Shown here: positions 17,956 through 60,960 of the stretch, in pieces
Numbering within the stretch: the stretch's first letter is position 1
How the letters are laid out: each line of letters starts with the position of its first letter
Virus record (IMG/VR): IMGVR_UViG_2721755711_000002
Strand: one strand, 5' to 3'
Source: a virus
Taxonomy: Duplodnaviria; Heunggongvirae; Uroviricota; Caudoviricetes
DNA: 64,000 bases
Program-made: the position numbers and the translations under genes
Notes under the pieces: generated by a model
Database searches by the model: none
What the model saw: the letters and a program-made list of their open reading frames with translations, nothing else
Told to the model about the DNA's origin: nothing

Positions 17956-18246
17956 ATGTCTGAACCCTTGTCCGGTTCCGGCACGGCTGCGGCGCTCGGC
18001 GGGGCGACGGTATTCGGGCTGTTTACCGGAACGGATTTCGGGATTGTGTTTGGTGCATTCGCAGGGGCGCTGTTTGTGGCCACGATACCACAGAAGATTT
18101 CTGTCTGGCGTGTGGCAGCGCATTTTCTGGTGTCGTTCATTGTTGGCGTGCTGGGGGCGGATGTGATGGCGTCTTACCTGGTTGAAAAACTGAATCTCCA
18201 CAGCACATCTCTCGACGCACTTCCATCGAGATCGGGTAATAACATT
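17956..18246 (+). pseudogene. Holin-like membrane protein gene, 3'-truncated at the IS21 junction
   Basis: 97-aa ORF homologous (~60% identity) to the first ~90 residues of the 131-aa protein at 47156-47548; diverges after LDAL where the IS begins. Confidence 0.5.
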
Positions 18247-18379
18247 TGAACAGATCGCTGAATAACATCGATGGAGATCACTTTTGACTCATTTTGTTAT
18301 TCAGTGATCTCCATCAATGTTATTGGAACTTCACAGGTGTGTTGATCTGTATCTTTTGCCATTCCGGTAAAGGATACCT

Positions 18380-19921
18380 ATGCCAACAGTTCCAATTTCT
18401 ATGAGAAAACTTAAAGAAATTCTTAGGCTTAAATACGGTGTTGGACTCAGCCATCGACAAATTGGTCGTAGTCTTGCAATCTCCCCTTCCGTTGTATCCA
18501 GATATGCTAATCGGGCGGCTCAACTTGGCATAAAGCAGTGGCCCTTACCTACAGGATGGGATGATACAAAACTAAAACATGCGTTCCTTCAGACCCAGGT
18601 TAAGATGAAGAAGCACTCTCTGCCTGACTGGGCTACAGTACACCGGGAACTGCGTAATAAATGCGTGACGCTGCAGCTACTCTGGGAAGAATACTGTGAG
18701 CGTAATCCAGGCGGTTTTTACAGCTATAACCATTACTGCCGGATGTACCGTGAATGGCTCAAAACCACTTCACCATCAATGCGTCAGGTACATAAAGCTG
18801 GCGAAAAACTTTTCGTTGATTACTGTGGACCTACCGTTGGCGTTACCGACCCTGAGACCGGAGAAATAAGAACTGCTCAGGTCATCGTAGCTGTTCTCGG
18901 GGCATCAAGTTACACATGGGCAGAGGCCACCTGGTCTCAGCAGCTTGAAGACTGGGTGATGAGTCATGTTCGCTGCTTCCAGTGGTTGGGTGGCGTTCCT
19001 GAACTTGTTGTTCCGGACAATCTGAAAAGCGCCACATCCAGGGCATGTAAGTATGATCCTGACGTTAACCCTACCTACCAGCAGATGCTTGAGCATTATA
19101 ATGTCGCAGTTTTGCCTGCGCGGCCACGTAAACCGAAAGATAAAGCCAAAGCTGAAGTTGGCGTTCAGGTTGTTGAACGCTGGATCATGGCCCGAATCAG
19201 GCATGAGATCTTCTACAGCCTTGCATCGCTTAATCAGCGCATTCGGGAGTTGCTGGAAAGACTGAATAACAAAATAATGCAGAAGTTGGGTTATTCACGT
19301 GCAGAACTCTTCATCCAGCTTGATAAACCCGCACTGAAGCCTCTTCCTGAAGCCAGTTACAGTTACACCCTGGTGAAGAAAGTCAGAGTTCATGCCGATT
19401 ACCACGTGGAAATCGACAAACATTACTACTCGGTTCCATGTTCGCTGTTAGGCCAGCAACTGGAAGCATGGATCTCCGGAGAACTGGTAAGACTCTTCAA
19501 TCAGGGGCAGGAGGTTGCTGTGCACCCGCGCAAGCGTACTTATGGCTACAGTACCCGCAACGAGCACATGCCTGAAGCTCATCGACAGCATGCCACCTGG
19601 ACGCCAGAGCGTCTTCTGGAATGGGCGGGGCACATAGGCAGTGAAACTCATAGTTATGTGCTTCATATACTGAACTCTCGTCCACATCCGGAACAAAGCT
19701 ATCGCTTCTGCCTTGGACTCCTGAACCTTCATAAAAAATACAGTAAAGCCAGACTTAATGCAGCATGTGCAAGAGCTCTGAAAACAAAGGTATGGCGTCT
19801 GTCAGGTATTAAATCGATCCTGGAAAAAGGTCTGGATAAACAACCTGTTCAGGATCCAAAACCAGATCTGTTATCCACGATGGAACACGAAAACGTACGC
19901 GGCAGTGAGTATTACCACTGA
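18380..19921 (+). CDS. istA: IS21-family transposase IstA
   Basis: 513-aa ORF with N-terminal HTH and DDE integrase-like core. Confidence 0.85.
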   Translation: MPTVPISMRKLKEILRLKYGVGLSHRQIGRSLAISPSVVSRYANRAAQLGIKQWPLPTGWDDTKLKHAFLQTQVKMKKHSLPDWATVHRELRNKCVTLQLLWEEYCERNPGGFYSYNHYCRMYREWLKTTSPSMRQVHKAGEKLFVDYCGPTVGVTDPETGEIRTAQVIVAVLGASSYTWAEATWSQQLEDWVMSHVRCFQWLGGVPELVVPDNLKSATSRACKYDPDVNPTYQQMLEHYNVAVLPARPRKPKDKAKAEVGVQVVERWIMARIRHEIFYSLASLNQRIRELLERLNNKIMQKLGYSRAELFIQLDKPALKPLPEASYSYTLVKKVRVHADYHVEIDKHYYSVPCSLLGQQLEAWISGELVRLFNQGQEVAVHPRKRTYGYSTRNEHMPEAHRQHATWTPERLLEWAGHIGSETHSYVLHILNSRPHPEQSYRFCLGLLNLHKKYSKARLNAACARALKTKVWRLSGIKSILEKGLDKQPVQDPKPDLLSTMEHENVRGSEYYH

Positions 19922-19932
19922 TACGGGATCCA

Positions 19933-20682
19933 ATGATGAATCATCTTTACGAACAACTGACCGCACTTAAACTCACCGGCTTCCGTGATGCGCTTAAAAA
20001 GCAACTTGCTCAGCCGGGCACATACCAGGAGCTGGGCTTCGAAGAACGCCTGTCATTACTGACAGCAGAAGAACTAACCTGCCGTGAAAACAGGAAGGCA
20101 GAGCGTCTGATCAAACATGCACGGTTCAGACTTAATGCTGAGTTATCAAAGCTGGATTATCGTAACAATAGAGGGCTGGACAGGGCCCTCATCCGTTCAC
20201 TCAGTCAGGGAAACTGGTTAACCCTGAAACAAAATATTTTACTGACCGGGGCCACCGGCAGCGGTAAAACGTTCCTGGCATGTGCACTTGGTCATAATGC
20301 CTGCCGACAGGGATACAAGGTCTACTATTATCGCCTTAAAGCGCTGATGGAACAGTGCTATCAGGGGCATGCTGATGGAAGATACAGCAAACTTTTGACC
20401 AGGCTGAATAATAGCGATCTGCTGCTTCTGGATGACTGGGGGCTGGAACCTCTCTCATCAGAACAGCGTAGCGACCTGCTGGAAATAGTGGATCTGATGT
20501 ACCAACGAGGCTCAATCATCGTAGTGAGCCAGTTGCCGGTGGAAAACTGGTACAAAATGATCGGAGACTCCACACATGCGGATGCCATCCTAGATCGACT
20601 GGTTCATGGCAGTATCAAGATCGAACTTAAAGGAGAATCAATGCGGAAAATACAATCTCCGTTGACCGAAGGAGATCAGTGA
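19933..20682 (+). CDS. istB: IS21-family helper ATPase IstB
   Basis: 249-aa ORF with Walker A LTGATGSGKT and Walker B LLLLDDWG. Confidence 0.9.
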   Translation: MMNHLYEQLTALKLTGFRDALKKQLAQPGTYQELGFEERLSLLTAEELTCRENRKAERLIKHARFRLNAELSKLDYRNNRGLDRALIRSLSQGNWLTLKQNILLTGATGSGKTFLACALGHNACRQGYKVYYYRLKALMEQCYQGHADGRYSKLLTRLNNSDLLLLDDWGLEPLSSEQRSDLLEIVDLMYQRGSIIVVSQLPVENWYKMIGDSTHADAILDRLVHGSIKIELKGESMRKIQSPLTEGDQ

Positions 20683-20836
20683 AGGTAATTTAAAAACGGT
20701 TCTGTGAAAGTGACACGAACCGATCTCCATCGATGTTACTCACCGATCTCCTTCACGGTAATACGCACATAATAAAAAAATCCAGAATAAAGCGCAAAAT
20801 AAGGTGATACAGCACTTTATTTGACCACTTACGTTT

Positions 20837-60012: not shown

Positions 60013-60038
60013 AGCCCCGCAAATGCGGGGCTTTTTAT
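60013..60038 (+). terminator. Rho-independent terminator
   Basis: Stem AGCCCCGC/GCGGGGCT, loop AAAT, then TTTTT. Confidence 0.6.
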
Positions 60039-60052
60039 ATTTGGAGACGATA

Positions 60053-60445
60053 ATGAAAAAAACAGAAAATAAACCGGTTGCAATTGGTGCCGCTGTTGTT
60101 CCGTTTAAGTTTGAGTTGTCTCAACTGGTGGAGATGCGCATCAGTGATGAATGGGGTGAGGTTAAAGCCCGCGCGCAGTATGCGGATGGCGAAAACCAGT
60201 ACTTGATCCACTACAAGGCTGCTGATGGTCGCGCCACAACGGCGTGGTTTGGTGAGTCAATGCTGGAAGCAACAGAAGATGATCGCCATCCGGGCTGTCC
60301 GGTATTTGCCGGTATGAAATTACCGGAAGGCGCAGTTGAACTGCAGCCGGGTGAGGTGTTCGTAATGTCAGAAGTCATTGATGGCAAACCGCAGTATTCA
60401 CGTATTGAAACTAACGGCAAGGACGTTTGTCTGGTTCGCAAGTAA
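60053..60445 (+). CDS. Hypothetical protein
   Basis: 130-aa ORF with GGAG site; followed by hairpin GCAGCCCTT-CAGTG-AAGGGCTGC. Confidence 0.5.
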   Translation: MKKTENKPVAIGAAVVPFKFELSQLVEMRISDEWGEVKARAQYADGENQYLIHYKAADGRATTAWFGESMLEATEDDRHPGCPVFAGMKLPEGAVELQPGEVFVMSEVIDGKPQYSRIETNGKDVCLVRK

Positions 60446-60650
60446 CTTGCATTACAGCAGCCCTTCAGTGAAGGGCTGCGATAATGTGAGAAATAAAAAA
60501 CCGGTCACAGGGAGCAGCTACACAGAACCGGCCGGCGAAGACCGCCAATACCACCCATGCTTCAGTAAAACATGCATATGACATTAGCTGGTATTGATGT
60601 AAATGCAATGTTACGCATCGACAAAAATAAAAAACCGGCAGGGGAAATCC

Positions 60651-60875
60651 ATGGAAGATTTGCCGGTGGCAAAAGTTGCCAATGCTTTTATAACCGTAGT
60701 CGCAGAGTTGCGGAGTGCAACTACGAATGCTGCAGGTATATGGCTGAATGGCGTTTCAATGATGTACGTCATCTTATCTGTAAATGTTAATGATAAACGC
60801 TCCCATTTGTGCGGGTCCTTTCCGGGAGTTGAAACACCGGGGGTCATGGGACGCGCAAAAACGCGCTATTTATGA
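60651..60875 (+). CDS. Questionable small ORF overlapping the cos region
   Basis: 74-aa ORF running into cos-like sequence; may not be translated. Confidence 0.2.
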   Translation: MEDLPVAKVANAFITVVAELRSATTNAAGIWLNGVSMMYVILSVNVNDKRSHLCGSFPGVETPGVMGRAKTRYL

Positions 60876-60960
60876 AAATTTTTCGAGTTCCACTTCCGGT
60901 TTTTTAATTATCTAACCAATTGATTAGATTGTTTTTAGTTATCAAGAAAACCGGAAGTCC
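60840..60960. other. Lambda-like cohesive end site (cosN/cosB region)
   Basis: CGCTATTTATGAAAATTTTT closely matches sequence next to the lambda left cohesive end; ~170 bp upstream of Nu1; inverted ACTTCCGGTTTT / AAAACCGGAAGT. Confidence 0.45.

Follow-up and report, generated by a model that had tools for sequence, protein, structure and literature searches.

How did a complete-looking set of Mu-like phage genes come to lie, on the opposite strand, within the late region of a lambdoid prophage? A preliminary description of this stretch of DNA (the window, 64,000 nucleotides) had read it as a simple insertion of a Mu-type phage, ~37 kb long and at 20.8-58.5 kb, into the lysis region of the resident prophage. 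We consider it very probable that a Mu-like phage did transpose into the lambdoid prophage, and that IS insertions and a deletion followed.

Four mobile elements nested in one window

We observed that the lambdoid prophage occupies positions 1-18218 and 58497-64000, with both arms in the same orientation, and that it is split by 40.3 kb of foreign DNA (18219-58496). The foreign block carries its Mu-like gene set on the minus strand, as had been described. The inserted block starts at 18219 and not at 20.8 kb; an ISEc12 copy at 18219-20767 had gone unrecognised. The window thus holds four nested elements (lambdoid, Mu-like, ISEc12 and IS629-like), as follows:

1..18218, plus strand: lambdoid (Rac-like) prophage, left arm (Pfam; alignment with E. 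coli R1)
18219..20767, plus strand: ISEc12 (IS21 family), with 32 bp missing from the start of its left inverted repeat (identity, Pfam)
20768..58496, minus strand: Mu-like transposable prophage, 37.7 kb including an IS (collinearity with TUM9812, Pfam)
34989..36299, minus strand: IS629/IS1203-like element, IS3 family, 1311 bp (inverted repeats; Pfam HTH_Tnp_1, rve and rve_3)
58497..64000, plus strand: lambdoid prophage, right arm (R1 alignment, PHROGs, Pfam)

The lambdoid arms and the empty site

The genes identified on the two lambdoid arms were as follows (Pfam, unless stated otherwise):

1-1020, minus strand: integrase
989-1240, minus strand: DUF4224 xis-like
1307-3814, minus strand: RecE/ExoVIII-like
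7098-7788: YdaS/YdaT-like
13988-15046: DUF968
15047-15412: RusA
15403-16098: Q antiterminator
16213-16692: MazF-like moron
16858-17778: AraC-like moron
17956-18218: Phage_holin_8 holin, cut off after codon 87 (Pfam; R1 comparison)
58497-58755: target ORF (phrog_33497), lacking its first 8 codons (PHROGs)
61028-61537: Nu1
61473-63425: gpA

The left arm also holds a DUF1627 gene, between the ydaS/ydaT-like genes and DUF968. The right arm runs from the target ORF through small ORFs to Nu1, gpA, a head-tail joining gene and the start of the portal gene. The Pfam assignments bear out the lambdoid gene order first proposed for both arms, with int/xis, early region, rusA-Q, lysis, Nu1/gpA and portal genes in one orientation and a lysis cassette that is incomplete (deleted). 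The right arm had been given as cos-Nu1-A-W-portal; its genes were recovered, but not the cos site, since the lambda cosN 12-mer (at most one mismatch) had no match within 58.5-61 kb, upstream of Nu1.

The uninterrupted holin-to-terminase segment, which had been proposed as a check, is present in E. coli R1. In this genome the order holin-holin-GH108-small ORF-phrog_33497 ORF-...-Nu1 is contiguous, and the window matches it on both sides of the insert, with 1.34 kb of R1 DNA missing. Window positions 17804-18222 align to R1 locus L002 4249-4667 and positions 58493-60825 to L002 6001-8337, both at 94.7% identity. Further to the right, collinearity with the R1 prophage extends through its terminase, head-tail joining and portal genes (61584-64000 against L002 9139-11555, 88% identity). 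As the empty-site reference is ~94.7% identical, the breakpoints are accurate to a few bases.

This comparison places the Mu target in the small phrog_33497 ORF, whose function is unassigned, ~0.4 kb downstream of the endolysin gene. The holin was ruled out as the target; the lambdoid holin (129 aa when intact, in R1) is truncated at 18218 and is joined to ISEc12 nucleotide 33, not to a Mu end. Transposition into the lysis region, as first suggested, holds in that the insertion lies near the lysis genes and the c-end junction falls at the exact terminus of the element, but the holin was not the gene entered.

Gene content of the Mu-like prophage

The Mu-like prophage is antisense to the lambdoid late operon, and the following genes were recognised in it:

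54171..58191, minus strand: early region (Pfam, PHROGs, tblastn)
57544-58191, plus strand: CI-type repressor, divergent (Pfam Phage_CI_repr)
57125-57361, minus strand: Ner (Pfam HTH_35)
55083-57125, minus strand: MuA-type transposase, 680 aa (PF02316, PF00665, PF09299; phrog_310, E 1e-197)
54171-55064, minus strand: MuB-type AAA+ protein (Pfam AAA_22/TniB)
48036-48503, minus strand: Mor (Pfam)
46344-47548, minus strand: holin-holin-GH108 lysis genes of the Mu-like prophage
44648..45388, minus strand: DNA N6/N4 methyltransferase accessory gene, between terL and DUF1804 (PF01555)
down to 20837, minus strand: head, tail, baseplate and fibre genes (Pfam, tblastn)

A Mu-type DNA-binding domain, an rve core and a Mu C-terminal domain were identified in the transposase, which is accompanied by the adjacent MuB-type ATPase, Ner-type regulator, divergent repressor and Mor activator. 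The block is collinear (90-97%) with the annotated Mu-like prophage of TUM9812, which lies in araJ. The Mu-type head and contractile-tail set follows this relative and includes Phage_Mu_Gp36 (Pfam); the Pfam domains Gp45, GP46, Gp48 and DNA_circ_N were found in identical relatives. When 55 reference CDSs were queried using tblastn, none of the 53 that matched had an internal stop. The methyltransferase gene is missing from TUM9812 (an alignment gap), while a DNA methyltransferase is annotated at the equivalent position in the E2348/69 relative. The fibre module consists of a 474-aa fibre and a 188-aa DUF4376 protein, as in IMG/VR loci L014-L020. No gin or mom gene was seen in the Mu-like prophage of the window.

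The IS629-like element, which lies among the morphogenesis genes of the Mu-like prophage, has TGAACCG... inverted repeats and a 3-bp duplication (CAC), and takes the place of the 2 final codons of the Mu gp36-like gene. It is 97.9% identical to an IS in Stx phages, and TUM9812 has the empty site. Its orfB is split into ORFs of 244 and 149 aa, so that the transposase may be defective and the element may be fixed.

The two ends of the Mu-like prophage

Phages of the Mu type integrate through transposition, at sites that are nearly random, and assembly of the transpososome needs both ends of the element. The ends in the window are as follows:

58347..58496, minus strand: Mu-like c-end (attL-like) (repeats and terminus)
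20768..20836, minus strand: Mu-like right-end remnant (comparison with intact ends)

The prophage is complete at the repressor (c) end. This end has three RTCCAGAWT repeats in the same orientation (at 58347, 58398 and 58472) and terminates in ...CCCCACA, which reads 5'-TGTGGGG on the phage strand. The same terminus recurs at 10 other sites (7 complete E. coli genomes, 3 draft contigs), where TGTGGGG adjoins unrelated DNA (araJ, yjfJ/K, eutC, melR/A, trg, scpC, a phage baseplate gene and three more). Judged from these sequences, the junction 58496/58497 is a true transposition junction, lying exactly at the terminus of the element.

At the fibre (S) end, the terminal 53 bp are lost. The remnant retains only the innermost transposase-site-like repeat (ATCCAGAAT, 20780-20788), without the two outer sites and the TG terminus. 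In intact right ends (IMG/VR locus L004, L014-L020) TGTAACTTCGCGATTTTTTCTGGACTATTTAGCGCTTTATTTTGAACGGTTGA is followed by CATAATAAAAAAAATCCAGAAT, and the window begins at CATAAT. The TG...CA termini with repeated sites at both ends, which relatives keep, are thus incomplete here, two of the three repeats at the fibre end being gone. Since the relatives have both ends, the element can be regarded as a member of this group by descent and as a defective copy. The identical 680-aa transposase is present on 19 public contigs (the three places shown differ in their c-end flank), and the same fibre-end module occurs at 7 distinct chromosomal sites, which shows a recently mobile lineage.

ISEc12 and the left junction

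The left junction is not a Mu junction. ISEc12 sits 53 bp inside the Mu-like right end, with its right terminus adjoining position 54 of the intact right end (L004, L014-L020). Its genes are:

18380-19921: istA (Pfam rve/Mu-transpos_C_2)
19933-20682: istB (Pfam IstB_IS21)

Both genes and the right inverted repeat (...GGTAATACGCA) are intact, and the sequence is >99.7% (99.7-100%) identical to copies annotated in many E. coli genomes. Three full ISEc12 copies start with TGCGTATTTTCATGAAAGGAGATCACTCAATA followed by ACTTCC and have 5-6 bp duplications; the window copy starts at ACTTCC, its left inverted repeat being short by 32 bp, and no direct repeat flanks it. It is therefore a truncated copy.

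We chose, for its parsimony, a single deletion of ~1.4 kb, which would account for three losses: 53 bp at the outer edge of the Mu-like prophage, 32 bp at the start of ISEc12, and ~1.34 kb from the lysis cassette of the lambdoid prophage. The lambdoid lysis DNA that is missing comprises the 3' part of the holin, the second holin and the GH108 endolysin. An adjacent deletion mediated by ISEc12 was considered as a simple mechanism and rejected, as the left terminus of the IS is itself deleted.

Length of the target duplication

The duplication made by phage Mu is 5 bp. In relatives of the present lineage, for which ~19 distinct insertion sites were seen, six complete insertions fit a 4-bp duplication, and two of the complete insertions exclude 5 bp (GPEC349-628, TTTG; TUM1881, TATC). 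The right end could also be read as GTAAC with a 5-bp duplication; this was rejected, since 14 of 14 independent right-end flanks begin with A and two insertions fit 4 bp only. The GGTA at 58497-58500 would then be the surviving copy of the expected 4-bp duplication, the second copy having been deleted. On these sequence comparisons it is likely that a widespread E. coli transposable-phage lineage, with Mu domain architecture but almost unrecognisable against MuA, makes a 4-bp duplication and not the canonical 5-bp one of Mu. If true, a transpososome of the Mu family would here use a different stagger in strand transfer; the 4-bp duplication deserves a record as a minor point of mechanism. A bias toward prophage targets was also considered; only ~3 of the 19 sites lie in prophages, which is no evidence of preference.

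Alternative explanations

Nesting of the Mu-like block in the lambdoid genes would by itself also fit a native module of a hybrid lambdoid phage, a reading that we regard as almost certainly wrong. E. coli R1 and at least five other genomes have the right-arm segment without the block. The block itself ends in a transposon terminus that recurs at many other sites, brings a second set of lysis, terminase, head and tail functions, and is antisense to the late operon. The preliminary description had named the finding of the block at the same junctions elsewhere as the sign of such a module, and no genome has these junctions: a query spanning either one (at least 80% coverage) found no place in 5426 complete E. 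coli genomes.

The unusual left junction allows two other readings, both very improbable in our estimate. The left arm may belong to another prophage and have been brought in by a rearrangement between ISEc12 copies, without a local deletion; ISEc12 is multicopy in E. coli (a median of 2 matching places per genome having any), the junction is not of the Mu type, and the outer ends of the lambdoid prophage lie beyond the window. Yet in R1 no more than 1.34 kb separates the holin that is truncated in the window from the Mu target downstream of it, with both in the same orientation, and the two arms diverge equally from R1 (~94.7% identity). Moreover, two ISEc12 copies that recombined would yield an intact IS, whereas the window copy has 32 terminal bp swapped for holin sequence. 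Alternatively, the join at 18.2-20.8 kb may be an assembly artefact in which two ISEc12 copies, a truncated one in the holin and a full one in the Mu-like right end, were collapsed. A 2.5-kb multicopy repeat does lie exactly at the odd junction, and in exact-protein look-ups neither the holin::ISEc12 fusion nor the neighbouring DUF4376 protein (two start choices) matched a record from any other assembly. However, since the Mu c-end adjoins the right arm of the lambdoid prophage, the true genome would even then have to place the two arms within ~1.4 kb. A collapse also calls for two ISEc12 copies, each with a partner left unexplained, and a single deletion is the more parsimonious account.

Relation to known elements

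Phage Mu, like D108 and SfMu, has the same plan of repressor/ner, A, B, semi-essential region, Mor, lysis, head, tail and fibres, and shares with the window the Mu-type transposase domains and the structural Pfam families Gp36, Gp45, GP46, Gp48, gpT and DUF935. The comparison with these three phages that had been suggested showed that the element is not close to them and falls outside Muvirus, as the only megablast match in the phage collection was to the IS. The MuA structures 4FCY and 1BCM matched the window transposase only marginally in the PDB search (E ~3e-4 to 7e-4, best 2.8e-4). Unlike Mu, the window has a CI-type repressor, and its relatives point to a 4-bp in place of a 5-bp duplication.

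The same lineage is found in TUM9812 (araJ), E2348/69 (eutC), tcmA_3 (melR/melA) and STEC313 (yjfJ/yjfK), at 88-97% nucleotide identity over the aligned genome or early region, with the same gene order, TGTGGGG...GTTACA termini and repeated CCAGAAT-type end sites. These copies lie in chromosomal genes with both ends intact, whereas the copy in the window differs in its fibre module, has taken up two ISs and is truncated at its right end. E. coli Z1324SEC0014 gives nearly the same picture as the window, with this Mu-like lineage in a DLP12-type defective lambdoid prophage, between ninE/ybcN and ybcO-rusA-quuD, and IS903B at the fibre end. It differs in the lambdoid prophage, in the IS and in its target, which is in the nin region and not downstream of the lysis genes.

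In STEC, a study of 13 closed genomes reported that 6 of the 10 Mu-like phages present are carried within mobile elements and that several Stx phages have Mu-like insertions (Nakamura et al. 2023, Microb Genom, PMC10132054). Such phages (LC727895.1, LC727881.1) are likewise transposable Mu-like phages of 35-40 kb nested in lambdoid prophages. They are Sp18-like, and their transposase is 44.7% identical to that of the window. In LC727895.1, the one record inspected, a 4-bp duplication is annotated, while the window has lost one end and one copy via ISEc12 and the deletion.

Proposed history and consequences

In the history that we favour, a Mu-like phage of a lineage common in E. coli would have inserted, by transposase-mediated strand transfer, into a resident Rac/lambda-type prophage, in the small ORF that lies a short way beyond the holin-holin-endolysin cassette. 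Its right end would originally have adjoined ...AAAATCACGGTA of the lambdoid ORF. The expected ancestral fibre-end junction would read ...AAGAAAATCACGGTA followed by TGTAACTTCGCGATTTTTTCTGGAC..., with holin 2 and GH108 intact upstream and GGTA duplicated; this predicted junction, under both the 5-bp and the 4-bp model, had zero matches in the collections searched. Other searches for a sibling genome were likewise negative, with zero matches in genome contigs for a 21-mer of the right-end remnant and zero in viral and metagenome contigs for the c-end junction.

A simple one-step insertion does not suffice, as at least three further events are required, in a proposed order that can be resolved only in part. 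ISEc12 would have entered the Mu-like right end, presumably after the transposition, between the second and third transposase-binding repeats. The ~1.4 kb deletion, with illegitimate (non-IS-end) endpoints, would then have joined holin codon 87 to ISEc12 nucleotide 33. Lost with it would be the holin sequence beyond that codon, holin 2, the GH108 endolysin and one small ORF of the lambdoid prophage, then the left copy of the duplication, 53 bp at the outer edge of the Mu-like prophage and the left terminus of ISEc12. The IS629-like element would have entered the Mu gp36-like gene at its 3' end.

That the Mu-type insertion inactivated the resident prophage, as had been thought probable, agrees with these findings. 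The lambdoid prophage would lack an endolysin and an intact holin, and 40 kb of antisense DNA would interrupt its late operon. The Mu-like prophage would lack the right-end terminus required by the transpososome, with every matched CDS intact. Since the lambdoid prophage, the Mu-like prophage and ISEc12 (one terminus) have each lost parts, we infer that all three are fixed in place. Prophage-finding tools would probably call a single prophage of more than 60 kb here, or misplace its borders.

Mu-like insertions in lambdoid and Stx prophages are already published and deposited, and the window implies no new biology. It offers a worked example of prophage decay, in which both phages and one of the two ISs would have lost a part needed for mobility, the outcome being a large fixed block of phage genes whose coding sequences are intact.

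Gene content of the arms and the inserted block

We observed, from ORF listing and composition, that coding lay on the plus strand to ~18.2 kb and resumed there at ~58.5 kb, with a minus-strand block of higher G+C than the arms in between. Pfam searches identified the left arm as a Rac/lambda-type early and regulatory region, in the order integrase, DUF4224 xis-like protein, RecE/ExoVIII-like exonuclease, YdaS/YdaT-like proteins, DUF1627, DUF968, RusA and Q antiterminator, followed by a MazF-like toxin, an AraC-family regulator and a Phage_holin_8 holin. On the right arm, small phage ORFs accompany Nu1 and the gpA terminase, and the arm aligned collinearly with an E. 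coli prophage across the genes for terminase, head-tail joining and portal. The block encodes a CI-type repressor, Ner, a transposase that has the three Mu-type domains and a MuB-type AAA+ protein, then Mor and a holin-holin-GH108 cassette, and the whole complement of Mu-type genes for head, tail, baseplate and fibres. This gene content shows that the preliminary description was correct in placing a Mu-like prophage, on the opposite strand, inside a lambdoid prophage.

Features of the window
1307-3814 (-): 835-aa protein of the lambdoid early-left operon, with an ExoVIII/RecE domain and a C-terminal Rv2179c-like 3'-5' exoribonuclease domain
16213-17778 (+): two morons, after Q and before the holin, encoding a MazF/PemK-like toxin (159 aa) and an AraC-family regulator (306 aa)
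from 17956 (+): lambdoid holin
18219-20767: ISEc12 (IS21 family)
34989-36299: IS3-family element
44648-45388 (-): DNA N6/N4 methyltransferase gene, between terL and DUF1804 of the Mu-like prophage
46344-47548 (-): holin-holin-GH108 cassette of the Mu-like prophage
48810-48821 (+): perfect match to the lambda cosN 12-mer GGGCGGCGACCT, inside the GemA-like gene of the Mu-like prophage
60840-60960: inverted repeat (CCACTTCCGGTTTT ... AAAACCGGAAGTCC) around an AT-rich near-palindrome, just upstream of Nu1

Host-affecting genes are often carried by lambdoid phages at the late-promoter-proximal position, which the MazF/PemK-like and AraC-family morons occupy.

Junctions and target duplication

In megablast searches of 5426 complete E. 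coli genomes, related Mu-like prophages aligned up to 58496-58500, and the lambdoid alignment started at 58493. Read along the phage strand, the repressor-side terminus (c-end) is 5'-TGTGGGGTAGTGATCAATTCTGGAC. This terminus also adjoins unrelated DNA in araJ (TUM9812), yjfJ/yjfK (STEC313), eutC (E2348/69), melR/melA (tcmA_3), the trg side (GPEC349-628), scpC (TUM1881), a phage baseplate gene (JNE21-009) and three draft contigs whose transposase is 100% identical to the window's; 58496/58497 is, therefore, a genuine transposition junction.

Prophages of this lineage end in TG...CA (TGTGGGG...GTTACA), and GTTACA closes each of the 14 independent right ends inspected. These termini and a 4-bp target duplication fit six complete relatives: L027/L031 (GPEC349-628), L030/L032 (TUM1881), L001, L003/L008, L013 and L025/L026. 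The 5-bp duplication expected at the outset is the wrong length for this lineage, being excluded by the flanks of GPEC349-628 (...CTTTG/TG...CA/TTTGC) and TUM1881 (...CTATC/TG...CA/TATCA); the other four are compatible with 4 bp.

At the left junction, the ISEc12 copy (99.7-100% identity to annotated copies) has both istA and istB intact. Its ends were judged against three full copies, each with 5-6 bp duplications, which start TGCGTATTTTCATGAAAGGAGATCACTCAATA followed by ACTTCC. Since the holin sequence in the window is fused straight to ACTTCC, the first 32 bp of ISEc12 are gone. The right inverted repeat is intact (terminal ...GGTAATACGCA at 20767). The window's fibre module recurs, its right end intact, in an IMG/VR contig (L004, 97.9% identity over 829 bp) and in seven draft genomes (L014-L020), that end reading TGTAACTTCGCGATTTTTTCTGGACTATTTAGCGCTTTATTTTGAACGGTTGA followed by CATAATAAAAAAAATCCAGAAT... 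The Mu-like sequence of the window lacks the outer 53 bp and starts CATAAT directly after the ISEc12 terminus; ISEc12 therefore inserted 53 bp in from the Mu-like terminus, separating the second repeat from the third.

The empty site and a proposed history

The uninterrupted holin-to-terminase segment was present in E. coli R1, which has, contiguously, a holin (129 aa), a second holin, a GH108 endolysin, a small unannotated ORF, a 93-aa ORF (phrog_33497), further small ORFs and then the terminase. Window 17804-18222 and 58493-60825 correspond to 4249-4667 and 6001-8337 of this locus, each at ~94.7% identity and with orientation conserved. Relative to R1, the window lacks ~1.34 kb of lambdoid DNA; the sole other window match to this segment (46341-46927, 80.6% over ~0.59 kb) overlaps the GH108 endolysin gene of the Mu-like phage. 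The PHROG alignment of the target-ORF remnant begins at profile position 9. The Mu-like target is GGTA (58497-58500), in codons 8-9 of the 93-aa ORF, and not the holin.

Two other accounts were weighed. The block is not a native module at these junctions: no place in the complete E. coli genomes (5426) covered at least 80% of queries spanning either junction, and looking for exact patterns in viral, genome and metagenome collections gave no copies. Arms from unrelated prophages are unlikely, since R1 has the two in one stretch and differs from each to the same extent.

The most economical history runs in four steps. The Mu-like phage would have transposed into the 93-aa ORF; ISEc12 would then have inserted in its right end; a single ~1.43 kb deletion would have run from holin codon 87 to ISEc12 nucleotide 32; and an IS629-like insertion would have occurred independently. 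Because its endpoints differ from the IS termini, illegitimate recombination describes the deletion better than a transposase-mediated adjacent deletion does. The history takes in four mobile elements and one deletion. The core of the earlier reading, Mu-type transposition into a lambdoid prophage, stands; its left boundary was misread, ISEc12 and the deletion lying there.

Integrity of the Mu-like prophage

The IS3-family, IS629-like element (97.9% identity to an IS of Stx phages) has TGAACCG... inverted repeats, a CAC duplication and a split orfB, and has displaced the two final codons of the Mu gp36-like gene; the TUM9812 site is empty. Among 53 matched TUM9812 Mu-like CDSs (55 queried), none had internal stops and 51 matches were full-length. 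The coding sequences are intact apart from this insertion, and the right terminus is missing. As this terminus is needed for transpososome assembly in Mu, the prophage would be immobile. The methyltransferase gene has no counterpart in TUM9812, and the E2348/69 relative has an annotated DNA methyltransferase there; it is a variable accessory gene, possibly with an anti-restriction role.

Lysis cassettes and cos

The holin-holin-GH108 cassette is common to the Mu-like phage and the R1 lambdoid prophage (L002, 4401-5605). As ~0.59 kb, mostly the GH108 gene, is 80.6% identical in nucleotides, a lysis module appears to have been exchanged between unrelated phage types. The sole intact cassette at the locus is that of the nested Mu-like prophage.

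Allowing at most one mismatch, the cosN 12-mer gave 3 matches (0.33 expected, shuffle control), none of them near the lambdoid Nu1. The perfect match is probably chance in G+C-rich coding sequence. The inverted repeat upstream of Nu1 has no similarity to lambda cosN; for this lambdoid type it may mark cos or the region that terminase binds.

Relation to known phages and significance

Megablast, transposase and MuA comparisons set the lineage well apart from Mu, D108 and SfMu. In a megablast search of 50,697 phage records the IS alone was matched, and MuA structures matched the transposase only marginally. Its best tblastn matches were Pseudomonas phage VW-6B (49.9%) and Klebsiella and Yersinia Mu-like phages (44-46%). 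The lineage is common among E. coli as an annotated prophage.

Earlier cases of Mu-like phages nested in lambdoid prophages are known. Stx phages in GenBank LC727895.1 and LC727881.1 contain an annotated 'region of the inserted Bacteriophage Mu-like phage', with a 4-bp duplication annotated in the former, and 6 of 10 Mu-like phages of closed CC119 genomes lie inside mobile elements, Stx phages included (Nakamura et al. 2023, PMC10132054). The same lineage lies in a DLP12-type lambdoid prophage of Z1324SEC0014 (NZ_CM135183.1 2830000-2870000), between ninE/ybcN and ybcO-rusA-quuD with its fibre end replaced by IS903B, and within a phage baseplate assembly gene in JNE21-009. Such nesting is expected from a near-randomly transposing phage, and the ~3 of ~19 insertion sites seen in prophages give no evidence of targeting. 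Only the 4-bp duplication made by this Mu-like lineage, as against 5 bp in Mu, is mildly new.
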